In this document: one piece after another, positions 50,126-64,000 of the stretch
Numbering within the stretch: the first letter of the stretch is position 1
Layout: each line of letters starts with the position of its first letter
From: SAR202 cluster bacterium
GTDB taxonomy: Bacteria > Chloroflexota > Dehalococcoidia > Lucifugimonadales > UBA6952
NCBI GenBank assembly: GCA_009392515.1
Contig: VFGE01000020.1
Span: 3,239-67,238, forward strand
Length of the DNA: 64,000 nucleotides
Reading direction: 5' to 3'
Translations under genes and position numbers: made by a program
Notes under the pieces: generated by a model
Told to the model about the DNA's origin: nothing
The model's database searches: none
What the model saw: the letters and a program-made list of their open reading frames with translations, nothing else

Positions 50126-50207
50126 TAATTACAAAAAAATATTTGATTTGTATCAAAAAATTAGTTTAAAATAGTTATCTAATCCACAAGCATTAAAGAG
50201 GATACAT

Positions 50208-51863
50208 TTGTCAGAAAATATCTTGGTCGCAACTGCCTGGCCATATACAAATAATTATCTCCATTTAGGCCATATAGCAGGTTGTTATTTGCCTGCAGAT
50301 ATTTTCGCTCGTTATCAAAGGGCTCGCGGAAACAAAGTGATAATGGTGTCTGGAAGTGACCAACATGGTACTCCAGTAACAATTGCAGCTGAATCAGAAG
50401 GTGTTCAACCAATAGATATTGTTAATAAGTATAGAAAAAACCATTTGGAAGTTTGGGAAAGGCTTGGGATATCCTATGACCTATTCACTACTACTGGAAC
50501 TGATAACCACATTGCTACGGTTCAGGACATATTTACAAAACTATATAATAAAGGATTAATTTACAAGAAAAATATGACTTTATTATATTCTGAGATTGAT
50601 AATAGATTTCTCGCTGACCGGTATGTAGAAGGAACTTGCCCAGATTGTAATTTTGAAAGAGCTCGGGGAGATCAATGTGATCAATGTGGGAAACCAATGG
50701 ACGCCCTTGAACTAATCAATCCTATTAGTAAATTAAGTGGTGATACTCCAATACCTAAAGAATCTGAACATTTCTTCTTAAAATTGAGCGCTCTAGAACA
50801 ACCTTTGTTAGATTGGATAAAAAAGAACGATTATTGGAAACCAAATGTGAAAAATTTCAGTTTAAAATATCTCACAGAAGGATTAAAAGATAGAGCAATA
50901 ACACGTGATATTGAATGGGGTATACCAATTCCATTAGAAGGATATGAAACTAAAAGGATTTATGTATGGTTTGAAGCTGTAATTGGATATCTATCTGCCT
51001 CAAAAGAGTGGGCACAAATTCAAAACAAACCTGATGAATGGCAAAAGTTTTGGTTTGATAAAAATGCACGAAGTTATTACTTTTTAGGAAAAGATAATAT
51101 ACCATTTCATACTATAATTTGGCCTGGAATATTACTTGGATATGAAAACCATAACTTACCGTATGATGTACCTGCTAATGAATATATGAATCTCTCTGGA
51201 GGTAAATTTTCAAAAAGTGAAAATCGAGCGGTATGGACACATGAATTTTTAGAAAAATTCTCTGCTGATGCCCTACGATATTACATCGTTTCTAATATGC
51301 CTGAAAATAGTGATTCTGATTTTACATGGGAAGAGTTTTTGAGAAGAAACAATGATGAGTTGGTAGCTACTTTAGGAAATCTAATCCACAGAATACTTAC
51401 CTTCACTTTTAGAAATTTTGACAGTAAAATTCCTGAACCAAAAAAAATAGAAACTAGTGATGAAAAATTGATGTCAGAGATTTTTATCACTAAAGAAAAA
51501 GTTGAATCCAATTTGGATATTTGCAAATTTAGAGAATCGATGAGAAATATAATGAATCTTGCTCAAAATACCAATAGATATTTAGATTCAGAAGCTCCAT
51601 GGCATTCTATTAAAACAGATAAAGAACGAGCTGGAACAACCATGTGGGTTTCATTATATGCAATTAGTGCTATAAAAACATTTCTATACCCATTTATGCC
51701 AAATGCATCTCTTCAATTAGGAAGCTATCTAGGAATCAGTACTGATGTAAATCAACCTACTTGGGAAGTCGAAAAACCTAAATCAGGGACTACTCTCGAA
51801 ACACCTTTTCCTTTATTTAAAAAACTCGAAATTGATATAGAAAACCCATTAGCAGATGAATAA
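50208..51863 (+). CDS. metG: Methionyl-tRNA synthetase
   Basis: HLGH (YLHLGHIAG), a Zn knuckle CPDCNFERARGDQCDQCG, and KFSKS (a KMSKS variant). The TTG start lies 6 nt after AAAGAGGA. Confidence 0.92.
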   Translation: MSENILVATAWPYTNNYLHLGHIAGCYLPADIFARYQRARGNKVIMVSGSDQHGTPVTIAAESEGVQPIDIVNKYRKNHLEVWERLGISYDLFTTTGTDNHIATVQDIFTKLYNKGLIYKKNMTLLYSEIDNRFLADRYVEGTCPDCNFERARGDQCDQCGKPMDALELINPISKLSGDTPIPKESEHFFLKLSALEQPLLDWIKKNDYWKPNVKNFSLKYLTEGLKDRAITRDIEWGIPIPLEGYETKRIYVWFEAVIGYLSASKEWAQIQNKPDEWQKFWFDKNARSYYFLGKDNIPFHTIIWPGILLGYENHNLPYDVPANEYMNLSGGKFSKSENRAVWTHEFLEKFSADALRYYIVSNMPENSDSDFTWEEFLRRNNDELVATLGNLIHRILTFTFRNFDSKIPEPKKIETSDEKLMSEIFITKEKVESNLDICKFRESMRNIMNLAQNTNRYLDSEAPWHSIKTDKERAGTTMWVSLYAISAIKTFLYPFMPNASLQLGSYLGISTDVNQPTWEVEKPKSGTTLETPFPLFKKLEIDIENPLADE

Positions 51864-52839
51864 TATAGAAAAAATCGATCTTATAAATATTTATAAACCA
51901 ATACAAAAATCGTTAAATACCGTAGATGAAAATCTGCTTAACTTACCAGTAAACCAACACCCTACTCTTGCAAAGCCTTTACAACATATTTCAAATTCAA
52001 GTGGCAAGAGAATGAGGGCTGCAATTACATTACTTACGGCTCAAACAGAGAAACCGGTAACAATTGAATCTATATCTATGGCTGTAGCTATAGAATTATT
52101 TCACCTAGCTTCTTTAATTCATGACGATGCAATTGATAAATCAGCTGTACGAAGAGGAGAAGAAACAATAAGTAATCTTTATGGTACAGATATGGCAATA
52201 TTAATAGGTGACCTGGTATTCGCAAATTCTGCCTCGACTGTCTGTGATACAGGGAATATCCTCGCTATACAAAGATTTTCTGAAACAACTATGGAAGTTT
52301 CTACAGGGCAAATTTTAGAAACTTCACAAAAGTTTAATACTCAACAAAATATTGAAGGATACTTAGAAAGAATATATAAAAAGACCGCTTCAGTTTTTGA
52401 AACTTCAGCTGAAACAGGTGGAATAATTTCTGGCGCATCAGAAGAAAAAACTGCTCTGTTAAAATCGTATGGGTATAATTTGGGAATGGCGTTTCAAATC
52501 ATCGATGATATTTTAGACTTTGAAGGTGACCCAAATGAATTTGGTAAACCTGTAGGTCAAGATTTAGAACAAGGGTTACTTACGTTACCATCACTACTTT
52601 ATTTAGAAAAATTCCCTGATGAAACAAGTATTCCTGCATTATTTTCAGACGGTGATTCTCAAAAATATAAATTCCAAGTGGTTGAAAAGATTATGAATTC
52701 TGAAATTATCGAAGAATGTTATATCAAAGCTCAAAATTACTGTAATACTAGTAAAGAGATGTTAGAAAAGTTGCCAAATTCTGAGGAAAAAGCATCGCTT
52801 AGTTTATTACTTGATTATGTAATCGAAAGAAGACAATAA
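51856..52839 (+). CDS. Polyprenyl diphosphate synthase (trans-IPPS, hepta/octaprenyl type)
   Basis: First Asp-rich motif LIHDDAIDKS and second motif QIIDDILDF. The start overlaps the metG stop. Confidence 0.85.
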   Translation: MNNIEKIDLINIYKPIQKSLNTVDENLLNLPVNQHPTLAKPLQHISNSSGKRMRAAITLLTAQTEKPVTIESISMAVAIELFHLASLIHDDAIDKSAVRRGEETISNLYGTDMAILIGDLVFANSASTVCDTGNILAIQRFSETTMEVSTGQILETSQKFNTQQNIEGYLERIYKKTASVFETSAETGGIISGASEEKTALLKSYGYNLGMAFQIIDDILDFEGDPNEFGKPVGQDLEQGLLTLPSLLYLEKFPDETSIPALFSDGDSQKYKFQVVEKIMNSEIIEECYIKAQNYCNTSKEMLEKLPNSEEKASLSLLLDYVIERRQ

Positions 52840-52843
52840 TAGC

Positions 52844-54373
52844 CTAACTAAGTATTCTAAAGCCATCTTTAATAACTACATCGACTGCTAATTTATGAAC
52901 ATTTGTGTGATCAATATTTTGTAAATTCTGGTTTAATATAACAATATTTGCTTTATCTCCTACAGAAGGTTTTTTGGATATGATATCGTTAGCACTAACT
53001 TGATTTACTCCTTGACTGATCAACCACATCGATTCCGTAATGCTAATCGCCTGATTACCGTTGTATATGTTACCTAATTGATCTTTTCTATTAACCATAG
53101 ATTGGATATTTATCAGAGGATCCAAATTTCCATAGGGAGCATCAGAACCTATAGCTAAATTAAATCCACTATCTAATAAGGTTCGATAGTTGAAAGTATA
53201 AGGTTGAAGCATTTTAGGTATTCTTTGAGAATACCTAAACCCGTTTTGATAAATAAATGAAGGATTAACTACTAAGTTAACACCCAGTTTTTTTGCTTTT
53301 GTGATAATCTCTGGAGTTGCTTCAGTAAAATGTTCTATTCTATCTTTATTTGGGTGATTGCTATTTGAATAAACTATTTCTAAAGCATCCAATGTATTGT
53401 TAATTTCGTCTTGGGTAACTGCATGAATAGCTACAGGAAATCCATATTTGTGTGATTCGCTAATTTGATTTGAAAGTTGATTTAAGTTTGGATATATACT
53501 CCCAGAAATGGAACTAACAATTATCTTTGTATGTCCTAACATCATATCTTTTTCCTTATAACCAAAATATAAACCTCTATTAATAAATTCATCTAAATGA
53601 TCGATACCAGGTAATAAAGTAATAGAAGGAGAAAATTGCAGACTGCTACTATGTTCGAGACAAATATTCCATTTTTCTAGATCATTATTTATAGAAGCAT
53701 CATGAATATAAAATATTCCCATATGGATAAGTTGTTCTAAGGTATTTGAAATATTAATTTCTGTCCGTTTTGCTTGATTCTTCTCTCTCAACAAAAATGA
53801 AATTTGTTCATTCATATCAAAAAACCATCCTGTAAGATTCCCATTATCGTCGCGGTCAATTAATCCCCTTTTATAATCTTCTGAAGAAGTACTAATACTT
53901 AATCTTTTCATTGCCAAACTATTCATAAAACACGCATGCCCAGATCTGTGATTAATTTTTATTGGATTATTTTTGAAAATATTATCTAAGATATCTAATG
54001 ATAATTGGTTATCTAAATCCATCTCATCAAAACCATCACATAATATCCAAGTACCTTCAGGAGAATTTTCTATACTATTTGAAATGACCTTTAGAATTTG
54101 ATTAATGTTTTTTACTTTTGGATATGAAACATCTAATTGATTTAAACTTGAAGAATACGAAAATAAATGTAAATGAGCATCAGCAAAACCAGTAAGAAGT
54201 GTTTTACCTTCACAATCTACAATCTGTGTATTTTGTGCATTAATCACGTCAATATTATCGAAGTCTACAGAATGTATTATTCCATTTTTAATATGAATAT
54301 TTGTTTGTGAAAGATCAAATCTATTTTTTAAAATAGTTGCATTAAATAAAAATAAATCGTCCATTTTCTCCAA
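52844..54373 (-). CDS. Amidohydrolase family protein (YtcJ-like, amidohydrolase 3)
   Basis: FADAHLHL metal motif, a later IHAV motif and GSDAP. 509 aa. Confidence 0.75.
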   Translation of the reverse strand: MEKMDDLFLFNATILKNRFDLSQTNIHIKNGIIHSVDFDNIDVINAQNTQIVDCEGKTLLTGFADAHLHLFSYSSSLNQLDVSYPKVKNINQILKVISNSIENSPEGTWILCDGFDEMDLDNQLSLDILDNIFKNNPIKINHRSGHACFMNSLAMKRLSISTSSEDYKRGLIDRDDNGNLTGWFFDMNEQISFLLREKNQAKRTEINISNTLEQLIHMGIFYIHDASINNDLEKWNICLEHSSSLQFSPSITLLPGIDHLDEFINRGLYFGYKEKDMMLGHTKIIVSSISGSIYPNLNQLSNQISESHKYGFPVAIHAVTQDEINNTLDALEIVYSNSNHPNKDRIEHFTEATPEIITKAKKLGVNLVVNPSFIYQNGFRYSQRIPKMLQPYTFNYRTLLDSGFNLAIGSDAPYGNLDPLINIQSMVNRKDQLGNIYNGNQAISITESMWLISQGVNQVSANDIISKKPSVGDKANIVILNQNLQNIDHTNVHKLAVDVVIKDGFRILS

Positions 54374-54493
54374 TAAACCTAAAAGAAGTAAAAATTATGC
54401 TTTATTTAAACTAGGTATTTAAATACGGTATGGATATAGTTTACATAATAAAACAAAGGTTGGAAAATTTATCAAAATAGATAGGAGTTTAAT

Positions 54494-55255
54494 ATGTATA
54501 CAATAAAAGTATTGACTCATGGAATGAATGTTGGATCTAATCAAGCACGATTAGGGCTATCCTCAGTGATACTACTTCAAGGAGAACAAAATATATTGGT
54601 AGATGTAGGTCACTTTGGTAGAAGAATATTACTTGTCGAGTCATTAGAAAAAGAAGGATTAAAACCAGAAGATATTTCCAGTATAATACTAACTCATTCT
54701 CACTGGGATCATTGCCAGAATGTTGATTTATTTCCTAACGCAAAACTTTATGTCCATCAAAAAGAAATTGAATATGCCAATAACCCAAGAAATAATGATT
54801 GGGCAACACCAAAGTATTTTAATAAAACAATTGAAAATCATAATGTATCAATTATTACACAAGAAACTGAAATAGAGCCAGGAATACAAATAATTGAAAC
54901 ACCTGGTCATACCCGTGGCCATATTAGTGTAGTTGTATCTACAAATGATGGAAATACTGTTATAGCTGGAGATTCATTAACTGATGCCTTTTCGTTACAA
55001 AGAGGCACTCCTGGGTTAATATTTTGGAGTAAAAAAGAAGCGAGTGAAAGCGTTGAAAAAATACGAAAAATTGCATCTGTAGTATATCCTGGACATGACA
55101 GACCTTTCGCTATAAAACCAAATGGTGAAATAGAATATAAAGAAGGACCAACATCAGTTACTTTTACTGGTGGATTTGAAAATTCAGAAAGTGGTTTTAG
55201 TGCCACATTAAATCTTGAAAAAACTCGTGTACCGTGGGTACATGAAGAGGCATAA
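54494..55255 (+). CDS. MBL-fold metallo-hydrolase
   Basis: HSHWDH motif, TPGHTRGH and a distal GHD. Confidence 0.8.
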   Translation: MYTIKVLTHGMNVGSNQARLGLSSVILLQGEQNILVDVGHFGRRILLVESLEKEGLKPEDISSIILTHSHWDHCQNVDLFPNAKLYVHQKEIEYANNPRNNDWATPKYFNKTIENHNVSIITQETEIEPGIQIIETPGHTRGHISVVVSTNDGNTVIAGDSLTDAFSLQRGTPGLIFWSKKEASESVEKIRKIASVVYPGHDRPFAIKPNGEIEYKEGPTSVTFTGGFENSESGFSATLNLEKTRVPWVHEEA

Positions 55256-55277
55256 CTATATTCGAAGGAGGTTTACA

Positions 55278-56015
55278 GTGTTAGAAGATATCAAAGGCAA
55301 AGTTGCATGGATTACTGGTGCAGGAAGTGGAATTGGAGAATCTGCAGCAATAAAATTAGTCGAAGCTGGTTGTAAAGTTGCTCTTTCAGGCAGACGTATT
55401 TCTGTACTTGAAGAAGTAGCTTCAAAGATTAACTCAAATAACGTATCAATTCATCAATTAGATGTATCTGATAATGAATCAGTTGTGCAGACTGCAAATG
55501 AAATAATTAAACAATACGGTCAAATTGATATTGGAGTATTTAGTGCCGGTATCAATGTTACAAAAAGGAATTGGCCTAATGTATCGATTGAAGATTGGAA
55601 TAGTGTTATAAATATTGACCTAAATGGTGCATTTTATTGTTGCCAATCAATTTTACCAACAATGAGAAAACAAGGGAGTGGTTTAATAATTAATATTTCA
55701 TCTATGGCAGGCAAACGAGCAGGTGCCTTAACTGGACCTGCTTATGTTTCAGCTAAACATGCCTTAAATGCAATGACAGAAAGTTTGATAATTGAAGAAA
55801 GAAATAATGGGATTAGAGCAACAGCTATTTGTCCAGGAGAAGTGGCCACCCCTATTCTAGATAAAAGACCAATTCCTGTTAGTGACGAAGATAGAGCAAG
55901 AATACTTCAATCTGACGACCTTGGTGAATTAATTTTATATGTTGCAAAACAACCACCGCATGTCACTCTTAATGAAATTTTGATCAATCCAACCTATAAT
56001 AGGTTTGAAAATTAG
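55278..56015 (+). CDS. Short-chain dehydrogenase/reductase
   Basis: The GTG at 55278 lies 6 nt after AAGGAGG and gives VLEDIKGKVAWITGAGSGIGES. The catalytic motif is YVSAKHAL. The ORF-track start at 55215 would overlap the MBL gene. Confidence 0.82.
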   Translation: MLEDIKGKVAWITGAGSGIGESAAIKLVEAGCKVALSGRRISVLEEVASKINSNNVSIHQLDVSDNESVVQTANEIIKQYGQIDIGVFSAGINVTKRNWPNVSIEDWNSVINIDLNGAFYCCQSILPTMRKQGSGLIINISSMAGKRAGALTGPAYVSAKHALNAMTESLIIEERNNGIRATAICPGEVATPILDKRPIPVSDEDRARILQSDDLGELILYVAKQPPHVTLNEILINPTYNRFEN

Positions 56016-56944
56016 CTTTTTATAGATATAGGCTCAGATAGTTTTGTATGTTGTTCATCCGCATGATACGAACTTCTAACCAATGGTCCTGACTCTACAT
56101 GGCCTAAACCTAAACTTTGCCCAATCTCTTTTATTTCTATAAATTCTTCTGGGGTATAGAATTTTTTTAGTGGAGCATACATTTCCCCAGGTCGTAAATA
56201 CTGACCGACTGTTAATATATCGCAACCAACATCAACAAGATCTTGCATAGTTGACTTAATTTGAGAAAGATTTTCGCCCAAGCCAACCATCATACCAGAT
56301 TTTGTTATCATGTTTGGATCAATTTCTTTTACCCTCTTCAATAATTCAATTGAGTAGTCATAATCACCCTTCGGACGAACTGTTTTGAATACGTCTCTAA
56401 CAGTTTCGATATTATGATTTAAAACTTCTGGTTTTATCTCAATTATTTTTTCTAAAGCATCAAATGAAAAGTCAGGGATTAATAATTCAACTTTACAATT
56501 AGGACGCAATTTTCTTATTTCTGTTACACATTCAACAAAAACAGATGCACCACCATCTGGTAAATCATCTCTGTTAACAGAGGTAATAACACAATAATTC
56601 AAACCTAGGGTATCTACAGATTTTGCAAGTTTGAATGGCTCCATGACATCTAATGCTGTAGGTCTTCCAGTTTTTACTGCACAATATCTACAGGCTCTAG
56701 TACAAATATCTCCTAAGATCATAAAAGTTGCAGTTTTTCTTTCCCAACAATCACCAATATTGGGGCATCTAGCTTCCTGACAAACAGTATGCAAGTCGTT
56801 TTCTTTAAGTAAATTCTGTAAATGTATATAATTTTCGCCACCAGGAGCTTTAACTTTAAACCATTCTGGTAAACGGGGGCGAGTTTTAAGTTCAACCCTT
56901 GTTGTCTTGCCTGCTATTCGATTATTATTATTTCGACGTTCCAT
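56012..56944 (-). CDS. lipA: Lipoyl synthase
   Basis: Auxiliary cluster CQEARCPNIGDCW, radical-SAM motif CTRACRYCAV, and C-terminal RSSY. Confidence 0.93.
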   Translation of the reverse strand: MERRNNNNRIAGKTTRVELKTRPRLPEWFKVKAPGGENYIHLQNLLKENDLHTVCQEARCPNIGDCWERKTATFMILGDICTRACRYCAVKTGRPTALDVMEPFKLAKSVDTLGLNYCVITSVNRDDLPDGGASVFVECVTEIRKLRPNCKVELLIPDFSFDALEKIIEIKPEVLNHNIETVRDVFKTVRPKGDYDYSIELLKRVKEIDPNMITKSGMMVGLGENLSQIKSTMQDLVDVGCDILTVGQYLRPGEMYAPLKKFYTPEEFIEIKEIGQSLGLGHVESGPLVRSSYHADEQHTKLSEPISIKS

Positions 56945-57003
56945 ATGTTACACCTTATAAATATTATAACTGAGCTGCAGATAATTTAAAACAATAAATA
57001 CTT

Positions 57004-58848
57004 ATGCGTAAAAAATATAAAATTCAACGAATACAAGATGATGAAGAAAAACTACAATTAACAATTACTTCAACTAGTAAGTATGGAGAAGGAGTATTTC
57101 TTGAAAATGATTTACCTTTATTTATTGAAGGTGCTATTGAAGGTGAAGAAGTAATCGTACAAAAAACGACCAGAGCCCAAAATTATGAAACTGGTAAGGT
57201 TATAGATGTAATAAAGCCCTCACCTAAAAGAGTGAAACCTTTTTGTAAATATTATGGGTCTTGTACAGGATGCCAATTACAGCATATACAATATGAAGAA
57301 CAACTTGTTATGAAAAAAACAAGGGTCAAAGAAGCATTAAACAAAATCAGTAAATTATCCAATGTAGAGATCAAAAACACCCTACCTGCTCCTGAAATTA
57401 CTCATTATAGAAATCATGCACGTTTTACTGTCAGATATGGAGGTAAATTAGGATTTGTTAATAAAAACACTCGTGAATTCATTCAAATTGATGAATGTAA
57501 GATAATGAACAAAGGAATAAATGAAAAAATCAATCAATTACAGGATAAATGTGAAGAAACTTCACAACTGTCTATAAGGCACTCTAATATAACTAGCTCT
57601 TTTCTTATACAACCTACCTTAAAATCCAATCAGATCACTGTAGAAACAGGACAATCACACTATCTTGAAACAGTCGATCAAATACCTTTTAAAGTTGCAT
57701 CACCTTCTTTTTTCCAAGTTAATACTGCACAGATTCCAACTATGGGAAAAATAATAAAAAACCATTTAGACCTTAAAGGTAATGAAATAATCATTGACGC
57801 ATACGCTGGTGTTGGTACTTTTGCCGGATTATTGAGCCCGTATGTTAAAAAAATATTTGCAATTGAAGAATCTCCTTCAGCGATTCAAGACGGGAAAGAC
57901 AGCTTGATTAAACAGACAAATATAGAGTTCCTACAAGGTAAAACTGAATTAGTTTTAGATAATATTACTGAAAATATTGATGCTATAATCGTTGATCCTC
58001 CCAGAAAAGGTTGTGATGTCCAGTCTATAAAATCTATATTAACAATGGAACCTAAGAATATAATTTATATTTCATGTGACCCAGACACATTAGCTAGGGA
58101 TCTACAATTACTCTTAAATGGAATGTATAAAATTGATCTTATTCAACCATTAGATATGTTTCCTCATACTCATCATGTAGAAACTATAGTGATTCTCACA
58201 AAGCAAATATATTCAGATATAATTTTGGCCTCATCTTCACCAAGAAGAAAAAAAATACTCGAACTTGCGAACATCAAGTTTAACATCAAAGAACCAATAA
58301 AGCCTGAATATTCATCGCTAACTAATCCAGAAAAATATGTCGAAGATATATCCATGTCTAAAGCAAAAGAAATAGCAGCAGCTCATAATTCTGGGATAAT
58401 TATTGGATCAGATACTATTGTTTATTCAGATAATGAAATTCTCGAAAAGCCAAAAACAATTGAACATATGAGATCCATGTTAAAATCCTTATCTGCAAAT
58501 AATCATAAAGTTACCACAGGGATAAGCATTATTGATTTGGACAACAACACCAAAATATCAAAATCATTATCAACTACTGTTACTATGAAAACAATTACAA
58601 ATGAATTACTTGAAAAATATATAGAGTCTGGTCGGGGTTTTGATAAAGCAGGTGCATATTCTATACAAGATACAGAATATAATTTTGTCGAAACTATACA
58701 CGGCTGTTATTTAAATGTAGTTGGACTACCACTATGCCTATTAGATGAATTATTTGTACAATTAGGATATAGTCTATATTTATCAAATAGAGATAATACA
58801 CATGAGTTATGCAACTCAAGTAAATACCAAAGGATTGGAAATATATGA
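57004..58848 (+). CDS. Fusion: RumA/RlmD-type RNA (uracil-5)-methyltransferase (TRAM, 4Fe-4S and MTase domains) plus a C-terminal Maf nucleoside-triphosphate pyrophosphatase domain
   Basis: N-terminal part: CKYYGSCTGCQLQH plus a downstream DECKI Cys, DAYAGVGTF, DPPRKG and ISCDPDTLARD. From about 58215 onward: IILASSSPRRKKILE...GSDTIV...KAGAYSIQD...VVGLPL, a Maf signature. It is one uninterrupted 614-aa frame. Confidence 0.85.
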   Translation: MRKKYKIQRIQDDEEKLQLTITSTSKYGEGVFLENDLPLFIEGAIEGEEVIVQKTTRAQNYETGKVIDVIKPSPKRVKPFCKYYGSCTGCQLQHIQYEEQLVMKKTRVKEALNKISKLSNVEIKNTLPAPEITHYRNHARFTVRYGGKLGFVNKNTREFIQIDECKIMNKGINEKINQLQDKCEETSQLSIRHSNITSSFLIQPTLKSNQITVETGQSHYLETVDQIPFKVASPSFFQVNTAQIPTMGKIIKNHLDLKGNEIIIDAYAGVGTFAGLLSPYVKKIFAIEESPSAIQDGKDSLIKQTNIEFLQGKTELVLDNITENIDAIIVDPPRKGCDVQSIKSILTMEPKNIIYISCDPDTLARDLQLLLNGMYKIDLIQPLDMFPHTHHVETIVILTKQIYSDIILASSSPRRKKILELANIKFNIKEPIKPEYSSLTNPEKYVEDISMSKAKEIAAAHNSGIIIGSDTIVYSDNEILEKPKTIEHMRSMLKSLSANNHKVTTGISIIDLDNNTKISKSLSTTVTMKTITNELLEKYIESGRGFDKAGAYSIQDTEYNFVETIHGCYLNVVGLPLCLLDELFVQLGYSLYLSNRDNTHELCNSSKYQRIGNI

Positions 58849-59060
58849 ATATTATAGGAATTGGATTTACTGAGTTAATCTTCATACTTTTAATTGCACT
58901 CGTTTTTTTAGGACCTGGCAAAATGGTTGAAATTGCACAAAAAATTGGTGGCATGCTTAGACAGTTTCAAAATACTGCAAATGAATTGCCTAAAATGCTT
59001 GCATTAGAAGATCTTGAAGAATCAGATAAGAATGAAAAATCAAAAAATAACCCAGAATAA
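58845..59060 (+). CDS. tatB: Twin-arginine translocase TatA/B-family protein (TatB-like: LGPGK)
   Basis: MNIIGIGFTELIFILLIALVFLGPGKMVEIAQKIGGMLRQF. The ATG overlaps the upstream stop (ATGA), and it lies directly upstream of tatC. Confidence 0.75.
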   Translation: MNIIGIGFTELIFILLIALVFLGPGKMVEIAQKIGGMLRQFQNTANELPKMLALEDLEESDKNEKSKNNPE

Positions 59061-59062
59061 CT

Positions 59063-59833
59063 ATGGAAAATAATCAGGAAGAAATTGCCTTAAAAAGCCA
59101 CTTAACTGAATTGCGAAATCGTTTCATAGTTTCAGCAATTTCCATATTTGGTGCTACAATTGTGATGTTTTTTTTCCATCGTGACATTCTGACCATATTA
59201 TCTGAACCAATTCGTACATTAGAAAGAGTCAATCAAGATGGAACTACCCTACAAAGCATAGAATTGGTATATACCAATGCAACAGAAATGTTAGGAATTT
59301 CTATGAAAATATCTTTTACTGCAGGATTAATAGTTGCCATGCCTGTAATTATTTATAATGCAGTAATGTTTATTTCTCCAGGTTTGACTCGGCAAGAGAA
59401 AAAATATTTATTTATTTCCCTACCTCTTATAACAATAACTTTTATTGCAGGAATATTATTCGGATATTATGTACTACTACCTCCAGCAATACACTTTTTA
59501 CTAACTTTTAATTCAGATATAGCAAGCCCGATGATCCGTATAGGCCAATACATTAATTTAATGGTCAACTTGCTTTTCTGGTTAGGATTTATCTTTCAAA
59601 CACCTTTTATAATGTGTCTACTAACAAAAATAAATGTTGCTAATTCTCGTATTTTTGCAAGAGGAAGAAAATATGCTATTGTTCTTGCTTTTATTCTTGC
59701 TGCAGCTATAACACCTACATTTGACCCTATCAATCAAATCCTTGTTGCTATACCTATTATAGTTCTATATGAGTTAGGGATTTTTCTGTCATGGGTTATA
59801 TCCCCGAGATCTAACGAAATTAAAACTGTTTAA
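59063..59833 (+). CDS. tatC: Twin-arginine translocase subunit TatC
   Basis: 256 aa with 6 TM helices, HLTELRNR at the N-terminus, and TatC spacing of conserved P/F/E residues. Confidence 0.88.
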   Translation: MENNQEEIALKSHLTELRNRFIVSAISIFGATIVMFFFHRDILTILSEPIRTLERVNQDGTTLQSIELVYTNATEMLGISMKISFTAGLIVAMPVIIYNAVMFISPGLTRQEKKYLFISLPLITITFIAGILFGYYVLLPPAIHFLLTFNSDIASPMIRIGQYINLMVNLLFWLGFIFQTPFIMCLLTKINVANSRIFARGRKYAIVLAFILAAAITPTFDPINQILVAIPIIVLYELGIFLSWVISPRSNEIKTV

Positions 59834-59838
59834 TAGAA

Positions 59839-60051
59839 TTAAGGTTTAGGTGATTCAGATGATTTCTCTGTTTCAGTAACGTCTTCTTTTTGTGCTACTG
59901 TTTCTGGTGATTCTTCTTCATCTTGGCCTCTTTTAAAAGCTTTTATACCTTTACCTAATGCTCCGCCAATCTCAGGCAGTTTACCTGCGCCAAAAACAAT
60001 TAAGATTATAAATAGAATAATTATTAATTCTGTAGGACCTATCCTAGGCAA
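59839..60051 (-). CDS. tatA: Twin-arginine translocase subunit TatA
   Basis: IGPTELIIILFIILIVFGAGKLPEIGGALGKGIKAFKRG is the canonical TatA pattern. The TTG at 60051 lies 8 nt after GGAG. The ORF-track GTG at 60060 overlaps that GGAG. Confidence 0.85.
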   Translation of the reverse strand: MPRIGPTELIIILFIILIVFGAGKLPEIGGALGKGIKAFKRGQDEEESPETVAQKEDVTETEKSSESPKP

Positions 60052-60115
60052 TTTACACACTCCAAATCATTAACTTATTGTTTAACATTATAGTCTTAGC
60101 ATTTTATTATGTCTA

Positions 60116-60143
60116 TTGACTATAATCACAAGTGATTTATACT
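60116..60143 (+). promoter_or_regulatory. Putative tRNA-Ala promoter (TTGACT-16 nt-TATACT)
   Basis: TTGACT at 60116-60121 and TATACT at 60138-60143, 22 nt upstream of the mature tRNA 5' end. Confidence 0.4.
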
Positions 60144-60165
60144 ATTGTTCTGGTATTCTTACTTT

Positions 60166-60241
60166 GGGGCTGTAGCTCAGCTGGGAGAGCGCCTGCTTTG
60201 CAAGCAGGATGTCAGGGGTTCGAGTCCCCTCAGCTCCACCA
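60166..60241 (+). tRNA. tRNA-Ala (anticodon UGC), CCA encoded
   Basis: GGGGCTGTAGCTCAGCTGGGAGAGCGCCTGCTTTGCAAGCAGGATGTCAGGGGTTCGAGTCCCCTCAGCTCCACCA. It forms a clean cloverleaf with a G3:U70-type acceptor and anticodon loop TTTGCAA. Confidence 0.95.
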
Positions 60242-60248
60242 TTAATTT
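60197..60248 (+). repeat. attL-like copy of the 52-bp direct repeat (tRNA-Ala anticodon loop to CCA plus 7 nt)
   Basis: TTTGCAAGCAGGATGTCAGGGGTTCGAGTCCCCTCAGCTCCACCATTAATTT is identical, 52/52, to 61596-61647. The flanking bases differ on both sides. Confidence 0.9.
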
Positions 60249-60299
60249 AGGTTCAAATTGTCACCTTTTCAGCTTAGGTGTCATCGCTATTTTTATCAA

Positions 60300-60322
60300 A
60301 GTCCTACACCTTGTCCTACAAC
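60300..60322 (+). repeat. Left arm-type repeat pair AGTCCTACAC / TGTCCTACAAC
   Basis: GTCCTACA at 60301-60308 and 60313-60320, 52 nt inside the attL-like repeat. Confidence 0.6.
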
Positions 60323-60427
60323 TGGCTTTTTTTTGGTCAAATAAATTGCACTTTTAATTATGTAAATTTTTCAACAATTACTATTTTTTGAAAGACCTTT
60401 TTAGAAAAAATAAATTAGGAGTTATTT

Positions 60428-60556
60428 ATGGAAGGATTGGCTGTAATCGGATTTGTTTTTGGAATGATGGGGATAGTAGCATTAGTTCGTGTTGAAAAAT
60501 TAATAAAAACTCTAAAAGCAAAAGGAATTCTTGAACAGAATTACAAAGAAGAATAA
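60428..60556 (+). CDS. Small single-TM peptide (42 aa), cargo of the cassette
   Basis: Not in the ORF track because it is under 60 aa. ATG lies 7 nt after AGGAG. Sequence: MEGLAVIGFVFGMMGIVALVRVEKLIKTLKAKGILEQNYKEE. Confidence 0.45.
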   Translation: MEGLAVIGFVFGMMGIVALVRVEKLIKTLKAKGILEQNYKEE

Positions 60557-60640
60557 CCTTTTTTATAAAAAATGAAATTGTCACTCATATCCTATTACCC
60601 CTATATCAAATCTCTAAGCCATACTCTTATGTCGACCCTG

Positions 60641-60649
60641 TGATATAAT
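60641..60649 (+). promoter_or_regulatory. Extended -10 promoter element TGATATAAT
   Basis: A TGnTATAAT match about 30 nt upstream of the 60679 ORF. There is no good -35, as is usual for extended -10 promoters. Confidence 0.35.
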
Positions 60650-60678
60650 CTCGGCATTATGAAAAGAGGGGTATGAAT

Positions 60679-60993
60679 ATGCCTAATACAATCGAGGTTC
60701 TTTTATTTGCAAAAATAAATGCTGTTGTACTGGGATTTTTAGGTTTAATATTAGGCTTATTATATTCTGTTGGTGGTTTGGTTATTGATATTCTCGTCAG
60801 TAATGGAAATATAAATTCAAACGAAACGTCTGGATTAGGTATTGGAACATTGTTAGCTTTTGGAGCAATAATTGGTATGCCATTTTTATTTTCATTGATA
60901 GGTTTTTTTTATGGAATAATTTCTGCTTTTCTCTATAACCTAATCTTTTGTAGAATTAGAACTCTCTTAGGTAATTCCTTATTTAAAGATTGA
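60679..60993 (+). CDS. Small polytopic membrane protein (about 104 aa), cargo of the cassette
   Basis: Three Gly-rich hydrophobic spans. The second ATG (60679) lies 7 nt after AGAGGGG; the ORF-track ATG at 60673 is only 1 nt after it. Confidence 0.55.
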   Translation: MPNTIEVLLFAKINAVVLGFLGLILGLLYSVGGLVIDILVSNGNINSNETSGLGIGTLLAFGAIIGMPFLFSLIGFFYGIISAFLYNLIFCRIRTLLGNSLFKD

Positions 60994-61036
60994 GTGTATT
61001 AATCGAAGAATAGAAAGGGCGAAAAAGGTTAAAATA

Positions 61037-61435
61037 ATGAAAGTAAAAATTATTAGTATTCCAGTTTTAGATCAGGATAAAGCTTTAATCTTTTATACTG
61101 AAAAGCTGGGATTTATACTAAAAAACGATGTCCCAATTGGTGATGGAAACAGATGGTTAACACTAGTTTCACCTGAGTGGGAAGATGGTCCTGAACTATT
61201 ATTAGAACCTGCACCAAAAACTTTCGAACCTTCTAAAGTCTACCAAGATGCACTAATGGAAGCTGGAATTCCATATACTCAATTAGATGTAAATAGTGTT
61301 GATACTGAATATAAAAGGCTCACAAAATTAGGTGTTGTTTTTAGCATAAAACCAACTGAAATGGGACCTGTTAAAATTGCCATTTTCAATGACACCTGTG
61401 GGAATCACATTCAAATTATTGAAAGCTTGAACTAA
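61037..61435 (+). CDS. VOC (glyoxalase/bleomycin-resistance/dioxygenase) superfamily protein
   Basis: 132 aa. Contains the N-terminal beta-alpha-beta-beta-beta module pattern (ISIPVLDQDKALIFYTEKLGF) and C-terminal FNDTCGNHIQIIE. Confidence 0.75.
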   Translation: MKVKIISIPVLDQDKALIFYTEKLGFILKNDVPIGDGNRWLTLVSPEWEDGPELLLEPAPKTFEPSKVYQDALMEAGIPYTQLDVNSVDTEYKRLTKLGVVFSIKPTEMGPVKIAIFNDTCGNHIQIIESLN

Positions 61436-61460
61436 AAAACTTTTTTTATTATGTCTGTCA

Positions 61461-61500
61461 CTGTCTACAAATTATCTTTGTCCTACAACAGTCCTACAAT
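61461..61500 (+). repeat. Right arm-type repeat cluster: (C)TGTCTACAA, TGTCCTACAAC, AGTCCTACAAT
   Basis: GTCCTACAA at 61480-61488 and 61491-61499, plus a degenerate copy at 61463-61470. They have the same orientation as the left pair and end 95 nt before the attR-like repeat. Confidence 0.6.
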
Positions 61501-61595
61501 GCCTAAGCGACTGTTAGCGACTGCAAGGTATGACATGAATATTATTTGCAAAGCCATGATAATCTATCCCAAAGCTAGCGATGGATTACAGGTAA

Positions 61596-61647
61596 TTTGC
61601 AAGCAGGATGTCAGGGGTTCGAGTCCCCTCAGCTCCACCATTAATTT
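61596..61647 (+). repeat. attR-like copy: displaced 3' half of tRNA-Ala (non-functional fragment) plus 7 nt
   Basis: 52/52 identical to 60197-60248. It lacks the tRNA 5' half and is followed by the terminator. Confidence 0.9.
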
Positions 61648-61658
61648 GAAACTAAAAA

Positions 61659-61692
61659 GCACCTAGAGATTCGTCTAAGTGCTTTTATTTTT
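61659..61692. terminator. Bidirectional intrinsic terminator (ancestral tRNA-Ala terminator; also serves the convergent HA-domain gene)
   Basis: Stem GCACCTAGA/TCTAAGTGC (9 bp, 1 mismatch) with loop GATTCG, followed by TTTTATTTTT. An A-run upstream provides the T-run on the other strand. Confidence 0.7.
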
Positions 61693-61720: not shown

Positions 61721-62167
61721 TTAATTAGGATTTTTAGGATTTGAACCTAATTTCCAATCTATATCAGCTTCTTTTAATCGTTTCTCACGATTAAGATCAA
61801 GAGTTCCTGCTCGTTTATACACTCTTTGTCTATTTAGCCAGTCGCCTATGCCCAAGTTATTATGCCTTGTTCCGCTAGAGGGGTCTCCATTATTTTTTGA
61901 TTTCCAGTCGATGAGTGCCCCTAAATAGCTTTCCCAGCTAGCACTAGTATTAAGGATTAAATGAGTTTTAATAGATTCTGAAAAAGAGGCAGTTATATTT
62001 GTTGGGCTATTAATTACAATCTTACTTGGCAACCTACTGCTAATATTTCCCCTTTTACCAAGTTCAAATCGTAGCCCATCTATTTCTTCCGCTAAAACCT
62101 GATCATGGTCTTTTAATGCAACGAGAATGTTCCACTCTTCAGTAAATCTCCAATTTTGTTTGCACAA
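61721..62167 (-). CDS. Helicase-associated (HA) domain-containing small protein
   Basis: WESYLGALIDWKSKNNGDPSSGTRHNNLGIGDWLNRQRVYKRAGTLDLNREKRLKEADIDW fits the HA-domain repeat pattern (W..L..F...G....LG.W...QR....G.L...R...L...G..W). Confidence 0.55.
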   Translation of the reverse strand: MCKQNWRFTEEWNILVALKDHDQVLAEEIDGLRFELGKRGNISSRLPSKIVINSPTNITASFSESIKTHLILNTSASWESYLGALIDWKSKNNGDPSSGTRHNNLGIGDWLNRQRVYKRAGTLDLNREKRLKEADIDWKLGSNPKNPN

Positions 62168-62321: not shown

Positions 62322-63968
62322 TTATTGTGATTTGAGATGCTTAGATGAATTAGCACGTGCTCTGCGTTTTCTATCCTCAATTTGACTATAACGTTCTTCA
62401 TACCATTTTGCTTCCACTGGTCCTGCAAAAGGGGGATGTTCAAATTTACAATTTTCCCCTTCGAGTCTCGGATCATTGCGATCTTGTAACGTTTTGAGGA
62501 GTTTAGATGAAAGCTCTTTCACAGTTTCAGAGTACTCTGGATCTCCTGCCACATTGATTAAATAGTCTGGGTCAGATTTCAAATCATATAGCTCTTCTGC
62601 AGGCCTCTTTCCAAAGCAAAGGTCAAATTTCGGTTTCACGTCGGGCTTACTTCGATTCGTTAGGAGCCATTCTTTTGTCGGGCCACCATCTAAGTCGTGA
62701 TAAACTGAACTGCGCATGCCACGAAAAGCTCCTAATTCGGCCATTTTCTCTGGGTCCACTATGTTCGGATCAATCAATTCTCCCGGATGCCCACTCGGCC
62801 ATCTATCAGGAGCGAAATTACGTATATACAAGTAGTCTTGAGTCCTGATGGCTCTAGAAGGATAGGGTTTGCCATCCTGTTGAGACAACGCAACGTGCCG
62901 TTCCCTACCTGTAATAACGTAACCGGAGCCAAAACTTGATTCACCTGAGGTCGATGCTGTCATTAAAGGAAGAAGACTTTCCACCATTTGATCAGGAGGA
63001 GTTTCACCAGCAGCTTCGAGAAAAGTTGGGGCAAGGTTCATTAGATTAACGAATTCGTGTATCACTTTTCCTGGCTGTATATTTTGGGGCCATCTGGCAG
63101 CAAGGGTAACTTGGGTTCCAATATCGTAGAGATTTGCCTTTGAACGAGGAAACCCCGGAATCCCGTGGTCGCCACTAATTACAATCAATGTGTTGTCCAA
63201 TTCTCCGATGTTATCCAATTCTTCGAGTATTATTCCGATTCCTGCGTCAACAGCCTGAGCTTCGCCAAGATAATCGTTAAAATCTTCCCGTATTTCGTGT
63301 ACGTCTGGCAGAAAATCCGGCATTTTCCCTTTTAATTTATCCGGATCCAGACCCCACAAGTCTTTCCCAGATCCTTTTTCCCATACTCTGTGAGTATTAA
63401 CGGGTCCCCACCAGTAGCAGAACGGATCACCTTCAGGGACATCTTCCAGAAATGAAGCAAAGTTCCTACGGGTTTCGTCATACAGGACTTCCTTGGCCGC
63501 TTCCACACCCATCTCGGGAACAAGCTTGGTAGCTTCAATTGAAAATTCCCGCCATTTGTTACCTGATGGTTCGTATTTAGCCCGGTAGCCCCCATGTGGT
63601 GCGTCTTCCGCAATTCCAGGAGACCAGACCTTGTACGTATAGCCAATGTGATAGCCTTTTTCTTCAAGGATTAGCGGGTAGGTAGGTATAGATTCATCCC
63701 AACGACCACCCTCCAGTATAGCCCCCAATCCTGTCTCCCAGAAGTATGTGCCGGACAGAATAGAGCTCCTACATGGAGTGCAGCTTGGCACAGGGACATG
63801 AGCGTTGGTAAATATAGCGCCTTCATCTACAACTCTATTGAAATTAGGTGTTTCGATAAGTGCATTTATAGAATCAGGGCCTTCGAACTTGGCGTAAGCA
63901 TTTGCATACCTTCCCCAGTCATCCGCAAATATAAAAACAATATTAGGCCTTTGGGTTGATTGCGTCAC
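62322..63968 (-). CDS. Cys-type sulfatase (arylsulfatase family), no signal peptide
   Basis: NIVFIFADDWG, formylglycine motif SCTPCRSSILSG (C-x-P-x-R) and GDHG. The GTG start lies 7 nt after AGGGGA. G+C is markedly higher than in the rest of the window. Confidence 0.88.
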   Translation of the reverse strand: MTQSTQRPNIVFIFADDWGRYANAYAKFEGPDSINALIETPNFNRVVDEGAIFTNAHVPVPSCTPCRSSILSGTYFWETGLGAILEGGRWDESIPTYPLILEEKGYHIGYTYKVWSPGIAEDAPHGGYRAKYEPSGNKWREFSIEATKLVPEMGVEAAKEVLYDETRRNFASFLEDVPEGDPFCYWWGPVNTHRVWEKGSGKDLWGLDPDKLKGKMPDFLPDVHEIREDFNDYLGEAQAVDAGIGIILEELDNIGELDNTLIVISGDHGIPGFPRSKANLYDIGTQVTLAARWPQNIQPGKVIHEFVNLMNLAPTFLEAAGETPPDQMVESLLPLMTASTSGESSFGSGYVITGRERHVALSQQDGKPYPSRAIRTQDYLYIRNFAPDRWPSGHPGELIDPNIVDPEKMAELGAFRGMRSSVYHDLDGGPTKEWLLTNRSKPDVKPKFDLCFGKRPAEELYDLKSDPDYLINVAGDPEYSETVKELSSKLLKTLQDRNDPRLEGENCKFEHPPFAGPVEAKWYEERYSQIEDRKRRARANSSKHLKSQ

Positions 63969-64000
63969 TGATTGGTCCCCTTTCCACCACTTATCTATTA

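Follow-up and report, generated by a model that had tools for sequence, protein, structure and literature searches.

The 64,000-nucleotide stretch of SAR202 cluster bacterium DNA analysed here (contig VFGE01000020.1, positions 3,239 to 67,238; the whole stretch is referred to below as the window) carries, directly behind an intact tRNA-Ala(UGC) gene, a cassette of three small genes enclosed by two copies of the 3' half of that tRNA. The results indicate, with a probability of roughly 70%, that positions 60249-61647 represent a small integrative cassette, which entered tRNA-Ala(UGC) by site-specific recombination of the Campbell type and is now a unit without a recombinase, comparable to the cis-mobilisable elements (CIMEs). 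An integration scar at the anticodon-loop site, with repeat-bearing arms at both ends, had been proposed in a preliminary description of this sequence, and the proposal is supported by empty sites in relatives and by the alignment of the attachment sites. The cassette is not an isolated element. It forms the youngest layer of an additive, hypervariable island that extends from tRNA-Ala to the genes for a protein of 81 amino acids (aa), Fur and ZnuA.

The two copies of the 52-bp direct repeat are 100% identical (52/52) and the tRNA gene containing the first one is intact, so that the perfect duplication of the tRNA-Ala 3' half claimed in the preliminary description was borne out. With the anticodon (TGC) at tRNA position 34, the first base of the repeat is also that of the anticodon loop (position 32), and the repeat runs from there to 7 nt beyond the CCA end. 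A spacing of 1,347 bp separates the core copies and holds three small genes and no integrase. Among the related loci fetched for comparison (given here by their L numbers) and the window, all 22 attR copies had a uniform core sequence. Misassembly, a doubt already raised with the first description, or a chance duplication has a negligible probability as the source of the repeat. Several contigs break at or near it, but such breaks are expected at a polymorphic repeat, and a match of 52/52 is far beyond chance. The artefact was rejected because both repeat copies were found, with identical sequence, on single contigs in at least ten independent assemblies from different ocean samples, and the duplication is real.

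The second copy is followed by an intrinsic terminator, which is the original terminator of tRNA-Ala (the B' flank) and adjoins the tRNA in strains with an empty site. Its hairpin (61655-61686) together with the T-run has a folding energy of -15 kcal/mol (z = -5.1) and none of 200 shuffled sequences was equally stable, in agreement with the strong terminator described earlier at this place. A simple consensus scan overlooked it because of an internal mismatch in the hairpin. The Rfam scan revealed nothing beyond the tRNA except a sub-threshold match resembling transfer-messenger RNA (tmRNA), which is due to the half-tRNA. RNA-based explanations of the locus were ruled out, as only the tRNA scored above the Rfam threshold and neither of the two non-coding arms of the cassette folds better than shuffled sequence.

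In three relatives (L026, L027 and L028) tRNA-Ala runs straight into TTAATTT-GAAACTAAAAAGCAC and the terminator, with no cassette in between, and L058 represents an additional variant of this empty site. A search of relatives for such sites and for presence/absence polymorphism had been suggested as a check on the integration scar, and both were encountered: tRNA-Ala lies directly before the terminator in these four loci, and the locus is polymorphic among close relatives. Upon alignment with the window, attB equals attL through the end of the 52-bp core and, from the first core base on, is the same as attR. The left side of attL and the right side of attR agree with attB base for base at the junctions, and the relation of attL, attR and attB fits the prediction of the Campbell model exactly. 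The empty-site strains share 94.4-96.0% identity with the window over the 10-kb flank, and the terminator (B') flank is 93-95% identical between occupied and empty strains. The divergence of the terminator flank thus keeps pace with that of the 10-kb flank, so that the sequence beyond the second core behaves like ancestral chromosomal DNA. Islands inserted by tyrosine integrases are delimited by a regenerated tRNA and a displaced tRNA fragment (PMC4383910).

Two further observations concern the immediate surroundings of these junctions. The loop of the tRNA-Ala terminator is inverted between the empty-site strains L026 and L028 (AGAAATTAATCT versus AGATTAATTTCT), and the stems are identical. 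In the window, a 15-nt inverted repeat with 93% complementarity (60244-60258 pairing with 61739-61753) joins the junction of core and left arm, AATTTAGGTTCAAAT, to a site 47 bp beyond the terminator, in the 3' end of the gene for an HA-domain protein; the empty site of L058 likewise has TTGAACCTAA directly after the tRNA.

The donor of the cassette would have been a circular molecule with an attP of about 360 bp, composed of a P arm of about 152 bp, the 52-bp core and a P' arm of about 155 bp. This attP would have recombined with tRNA-Ala through a crossover at or near the anticodon loop. As the identity block begins exactly at the anticodon loop, we infer that strand exchange took place there. 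A crossover at the anticodon loop is typical of tyrosine integrases targeting tRNA genes, and an enzyme of this class was probably responsible. Under the Campbell model, the 3' part of the present tRNA, from the anticodon loop on, would have been supplied by the core of the element and the 5' part would be host-derived, the original tRNA 3' half and its terminator having been displaced by 1.4 kb. The cassette would either have arisen by deletion from a larger element or have been, from the outset, a passenger relying on a recombinase encoded elsewhere.

The two ends of the cassette are non-coding and share a short oriented motif, GTCCTACA, which had been noted as an otherwise rare 8-mer clustered in the same orientation just inside both repeats. 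The 64 kb indeed contain it 6 times, the expected number being 1.09, and none of 100 shuffled sequences reached 6 occurrences. The four + strand copies (at 60301, 60313, 61480 and 61491) all lie inside the two non-coding ends; in addition, a degenerate fifth copy, TGTCTACAA, is located at 61462-61470, and the 12-mer TTGTCCTACAAC is common to both cassette ends. In the model of lambda Int, short arm-type repeats distinct from the core are bound by the N-terminal domain of the integrase. The P' arm has two of the direct repeats found here, GTCCTACA(A/C), and the P arm has three; they are most probably arm-type sites for a recombinase or an accessory protein.

Homologues of the left arm are located beside the same tRNA in L033, L034/L036, L003 and L035/L037 (at least five alleles), and its first 45 bp or so are nearly unchanged among them. 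The motif pair consists of GTCCTACA (the TCCTACA form) twice in the window, L035 and L037 and of TCCACCA twice in L003, L034 and L036, both copies being replaced together; L033 has neither pair. L003 and L037, which belong to one lineage, are nearly identical apart from the motif pair. The motif stretch of L037 matches the window at 24/24 positions, the remaining arm being 77-91% identical, and the left arm as a whole shows 77-91% identity to the LRMED lineage. An oriented repeat that is present at both ends and switches as a unit is as expected for protein recognition sites, for example the arm-type sites of an integrase. A scan of metagenome contigs with the left arm gave four matches, all at the same tRNA-Ala and in the same clade. 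The right arm starts exactly where the similarity to an arm-less copy of the cargo (L067) stops, at 61443, and no right-arm homologue was found in any other locus fetched.

A different arm is present in L001 and L055, with only about 12 bp past the core in common with that of the window; it has the same layout, with TTTTGTAACAC twice. The insert type of L001 (11180-11609) and L055 is non-coding for at least 400 bp, and every contig of this type ends 28-413 bp after the tRNA. Possibly this insert is a larger element, or one in several copies, whose sequence assemblers fail to resolve. The motif TCCACCA in the arms of L003, L034 and L036 is the same 7-mer as in the acceptor end of the tRNA (CTCCACCA, tRNA 3' end at 60233-60241). 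This match may be a coincidence, or the repeats may derive from the tRNA end or mimic it.

The left arm could also be read as conserved host sequence 3' of tRNA-Ala, for instance a promoter or operator region for small hydrophobic open reading frames (ORFs), with the repeats as operator sites. The divergence of the arm between lineages matches that of the neighbouring core genes, each allele has a small hydrophobic ORF behind the arm and a weak promoter-like match is located at 60388-60416. Several close strains lack the arm, however, and in these the tRNA is immediately followed by the terminator or by some other sequence. Three further copies of the motif are moreover found at the other cassette end, immediately within the second core, and the arm shows no significant RNA structure, all of which makes this explanation very unlikely.

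The gene content of the cassette corresponds to what had been described before, namely a 42-aa peptide, a membrane protein of about 104 aa and a VOC/glyoxalase-family protein; it was confirmed by the ORFs and by the PF00903 match (Table 1). The membrane protein has homologues with 43-60% identity in other bacteria, Bacteroidota among them. The VOC protein belongs to a highly conserved family of 131-132 aa, with 75-83% identity in SAR202 and many Bacteroidota, and a copy with 80% identity is situated in a core chromosomal context on SAR202 contigs of the same samples. The arm-less copy L067, a contig of 968 bp from Logan DRR671419, carries the VOC gene and the 3' end of the membrane-protein gene with 93.7% DNA identity. 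Neither arms nor a tRNA half are present there and the next gene encodes a zinc-ribbon membrane protein. The two-gene cargo therefore exists outside the cassette, in a different context. The G+C content of the cassette is the same as that of the host, which suggests a donor of similar composition.

Table 1. Coordinates of the features of the tRNA-Ala locus in the window.
Feature	Position	Strand	Basis or remark
Intact tRNA-Ala(UGC) gene	60166..60241	+	ARAGORN; Rfam tRNA, 71.2 bits
First core copy (attL core), from the anticodon loop through CCA (45 nt) and on through TTAATTT	60197..60248	+	Repeat and att alignment
Left (P'-type) arm, non-coding, about 155 bp	60249..60403	+	Six-allele alignment, mean column identity 84%
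Left-arm motif pair AGTCCTACAC, TGTCCTACAAC, starts 12 bp apart; candidate arm-type protein-binding sites	60300..60322	+	
42-aa hydrophobic ORF	60428..60556	+	Gene call in public assemblies; no Pfam family
TGATATAAT, extended -10-like element 5' of membrane-protein gene	60641..60649	+	Read from sequence
Predicted membrane protein, 106 aa (104 aa from ATG 60679)	60673..60993	+	No Pfam family; real homologues
VOC/glyoxalase-family protein, 132 aa	61037..61435	+	PF00903, E = 1.3e-13
Right (P-type) arm, non-coding, about 152 bp	61444..61595	+	Begins at end of similarity to L067
Right-arm direct motif copies TGTCTACAA, TGTCCTACAAC, AGTCCTACAAT	61462..61500	+	Oriented as left-arm copies
Second core copy (attR core), the tRNA's original, now displaced 3' half with 7 nt more	61596..61647	+	Repeat and att alignment
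Intrinsic terminator, original tRNA-Ala terminator (B' flank)	61655..61692	+	Fold statistics; adjoins tRNA in empty-site strains
HA-domain protein, 148 aa (older layer)	61721..62167	-	G+C 45-50% versus about 31% in host
Sulfatase, 548 aa (older layer)	62322..63968	-	G+C 45-50% versus about 31% in host
Possible third tRNA 3'-end vestige, GTCCCCT-TTCCACCAC-TTAT	63975..63994	+	Position as in L003/L037/L002; not significant alone (56/300 shuffles)

The close matches to the window are metagenome-assembled genomes labelled Dehalococcoidia or SAR202 cluster bacterium. The host is a marine SAR202-type member of the Dehalococcoidia; its genome has a G+C content of about 31%. Housekeeping genes lie 5' of tRNA-Ala (a RumA-Maf fusion, TatA, TatC and a second TatA), and the conserved 81-aa gene, Fur and ZnuABC follow just past the end of the window. 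The RumA-Maf fusion is one ORF of 614 aa (57004-58848, + strand), in which a RumA-type tRNA/rRNA U5-methyltransferase domain (PF05958) is fused to a Maf domain (PF02545), and it is kept in all related contigs.

What lies between tRNA-Ala and the 81-aa gene takes several different forms in contigs whose TatA is identical to that of the window. At least seven versions of the interval from tRNA-Ala to the 81-aa/Fur genes were found in strains that are 94-99.9% identical in the flank. The version of the window comprises the cassette, core, terminator, HA-domain gene and sulfatase. Others consist of a DCC1-like gene, of genes for two giant proteins (1,802 and 655 aa), of the left arm with a gene for a repeat-rich secreted protein, of the left arm fused to the giant-gene region (L033), or of the arm of L001. 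A longer, GC-rich version (L042, PBVD01000023.1) with genes for a BNR sialidase-like protein, an HpcH aldolase and a second sulfatase looks like a module for the utilisation of sulfated glycans. The pair of HA-domain and sulfatase genes is a foreign, older layer of the island, absent from other strains, which carry other cargo in its place. Decayed tRNA halves form the boundary of older layers, that of the DCC1-like gene in relatives and possibly that of this pair in the window: the 81-aa gene of L003, L037 and L002 is adjoined by a degraded 3' half of a tRNA, with a flank resembling B' (0 of 300 shuffled sequences scored as high). L034 has 99.87% flank identity to the window over 10 kb (50166-60400), yet it carries the other arm allele (TCCACCA twice) and other cargo, and the turnover of the cassette is therefore recent. 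The additive pattern, in which insertion is repeated at one tRNA, the newer layers adjoin that tRNA and older layers decay, has been described for the tycheposon islands of Prochlorococcus (bioRxiv 10.1101/2020.12.28.424599) and for the tRNA-Lys-linked island of pelagic Methylophilaceae (PMC10872708).

The present polymorphism may have been produced by homologous recombination instead, either as RecA-dependent deletion between the 52-bp repeats or as swaps of whole islands via the conserved flanks (TatA/tRNA and 81-aa/Fur); the 52-bp homology might even have mediated the original Campbell insertion of circular DNA. The empty-site strains carry giant fn3 proteins, and not the HA-domain/sulfatase pair, in the next layer. 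Since they also differ there, exchange of the whole island could account for the polymorphism as well as excision could. The limits of variability coincide with the conserved flanks in all versions, the left arm of L033, joined directly to the giant-gene region, is a deletion product in these terms, and both replacement and additive islands have been described for pelagic bacteria (PMC10872708). Homologous recombination nevertheless does not create a duplicated tRNA half whose left edge falls on the first base of the anticodon loop. It leaves unexplained the two arms with common oriented repeats and the reappearance of this layout in combination with different arm motifs, and the B' flank diverges in step with the genome and so looks ancestral, not imported. 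As an account of the locus it is somewhat unlikely.

No recombinase, excisionase or replication domain was found by Pfam in the three cargo ORFs. Pfam and precomputed annotations likewise gave no recombinase domain in essentially all of the larger ORFs of the 64-kb window, which have housekeeping functions only, and precomputed annotations gave none in the 10 kb downstream, which encode Fur, ZnuABC, an aminotransferase and an amidohydrolase. The statement that the cassette has no integrase, excisionase or replication gene therefore holds, for the cassette itself as well as for these surroundings. About seven alternative versions of the island also lack an integrase, as does the distant SAR202 relative L004, which has the same TatA/tRNA-Ala arrangement with BNR/sortilin and MFS genes instead. 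An integron cassette, an insertion sequence (IS) or a miniature inverted-repeat transposable element was considered and rejected: the cassette ends in direct repeats derived from the tRNA, the repeat scan gave no terminal inverted repeats, and neither intI nor a transposase was found in the Pfam scans.

Several results weigh against an integrative origin of the cassette. A cognate integrase was found in none of the sequences searched. The preliminary description had proposed looking for a tyrosine integrase with the same core or repeats; this search of island versions, viral contigs and phage and plasmid records came out negative. Scans of viral_contigs with the left arm, the L001 arm, the 42-nt tRNA core and the 106-aa cargo protein gave no match, and a BLAST search of phage and plasmid records with the whole cassette matched only tRNA-Ala genes. 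No integrase-bearing relative with the same arms or core was found, whole genomes of the lineage being outside this search. Among the core occurrences examined in fetched contigs only attL, attR and attB were seen, and no attP junction of a circular or tandem form. The cassette was never seen at a second site or in another host and is always linked to the HA-domain/sulfatase layer. Each contig with the HA gene also bears the right end of the cassette, and no contig shows the exact pre-insertion order of tRNA, terminator and HA gene. The arm sites are candidate binding sites by their sequence pattern. Finally, the divergence of the left arm between lineages is about that of the flanking core genes, and the arm could therefore be old and vertically inherited, not recently acquired.

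The lack of an integrase bears as well on the possibility that the 1.35-kb unit and the alleles sharing its left arm are still mobile as satellites. A recombinase would in this case be supplied in trans by another island, a phage or an element of another cell, and the arm motifs would set which recombinase serves which cassette. The absence of an own integrase from about seven island versions is how such a dependent system would look. All copies of the core repeat that were seen are perfect, the two arms are intact and contain five motif copies in the same orientation, the arm alleles are discrete, a strain with a 99.87% identical flank has a different cassette, and sister strains have the empty site. 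On the other hand, no recombinase was identified and the fetched contigs contained no circular junction. The right arm has no relatives in the loci fetched; L036, the only other allele traced as far as the distal island end, lacks both a right arm and a second core; and the cassette is known from one context only. Present activity of this kind is considered unlikely.

The reading of the cassette as an integrated unit that has lost, or never had, a recombinase agrees in different respects with several known systems. CIMEs keep attL and attR and lack genes for recombination and transfer (definition: PMC5704250). Like those of the integrative and conjugative elements (ICEs) as well as integrative mobilisable elements (IMEs) of Streptococcus, the cassette keeps both att sites at the 3' end of its target gene without genes for integration or transfer, and it is accreted in tandem with other layers. 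CIMEs are, however, defined by descent from, or mobilisation by, a known related ICE or IME, whereas the analysis revealed neither a parent nor a helper. The cassette resides in a streamlined marine member of the Dehalococcoidia, with no sign of conjugation genes in the region, and is only 1.35 kb long.

With islands of the Islander type in tRNA and tmRNA genes (PMC4383910) the cassette has in common the regenerated tRNA, the displaced 3' fragment at the far end and a block of identity beginning at the anticodon loop; those islands are recognised by their integrase gene, but the cassette has none. Its non-coding arms with direct repeats on either side of the core resemble, in sequence layout, an attP of the lambda type. 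As in tRNA-targeting islands in general, the tRNA 3' repeat flanks the insert, the tRNA is regenerated and relatives have an unoccupied attB, but a tyrosine or serine recombinase encoded by the element is missing.

Partial-tRNA repeats, tandem insertions and degenerate remnants are known from marine islands (bioRxiv 10.1101/2020.12.28.424599; PMC10872708). The tycheposon islands of Prochlorococcus (bioRxiv 10.1101/2020.12.28.424599) are likewise found in a marine oligotroph, with repeated insertion at a tRNA site, partial tRNA copies between the layers, newer elements that push older ones inward, degenerate remnants and a small cargo of niche genes. Tycheposons carry a tyrosine or serine recombinase and a replication module (primase, helicase or polymerase), while the cassette has neither and contains three small ORFs only. 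The additive island of 'Candidatus Methylopumilus' (PMC10872708) also belongs to a streamlined pelagic host, is variable in size and content, and has recurring copies of a tRNA 3' end and a small, mostly hypothetical cargo. There, the repeat is the last 20 bp of tRNA-Lys, in contrast to the 52 bp from the anticodon loop in the present locus, the newest layer of which also has recognisable arms at both ends. As in other additive flexible islands, the cassette content at the same tRNA-adjacent site differs among close strains. The locus is best filed as a CIME-like, cargo-only integrative remnant in a tRNA-anchored additive island, of a kind that is already known but in a new host group.

The switching pairs of arm motifs, together with the lack of a recombinase in any version seen, leave a modest chance of a system of cassettes mobilised in trans. 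In its widest form, marine SAR202-type Dehalococcoidia would harbour a family of mini-cassettes without recombinases, sharing a P' arm of about 150 bp and shuttled at one tRNA-Ala by a recombinase encoded elsewhere. The specificities of the paired repeats, TCCTACA, TCCACCA and possibly GTAACAC (in the different arm), would then serve as address labels in an integron-like exchange on a tRNA att site. Such an arrangement is quite unlikely.

The locus provides a base-resolved example of gene-content turnover in an abundant, uncultured and genome-streamlined ocean lineage, for which attL, attR and attB were all obtained from natural populations and where a single tRNA displays several successive layers. 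Should a recombinase acting in trans indeed recognise the arm motifs, one would be led from here to this enzyme and to the vehicles of gene transfer of SAR202-type bacteria. Mainly, it extends a familiar pattern, that of partial-tRNA repeats in additive islands and of CIME-like remnants, to a new host group.

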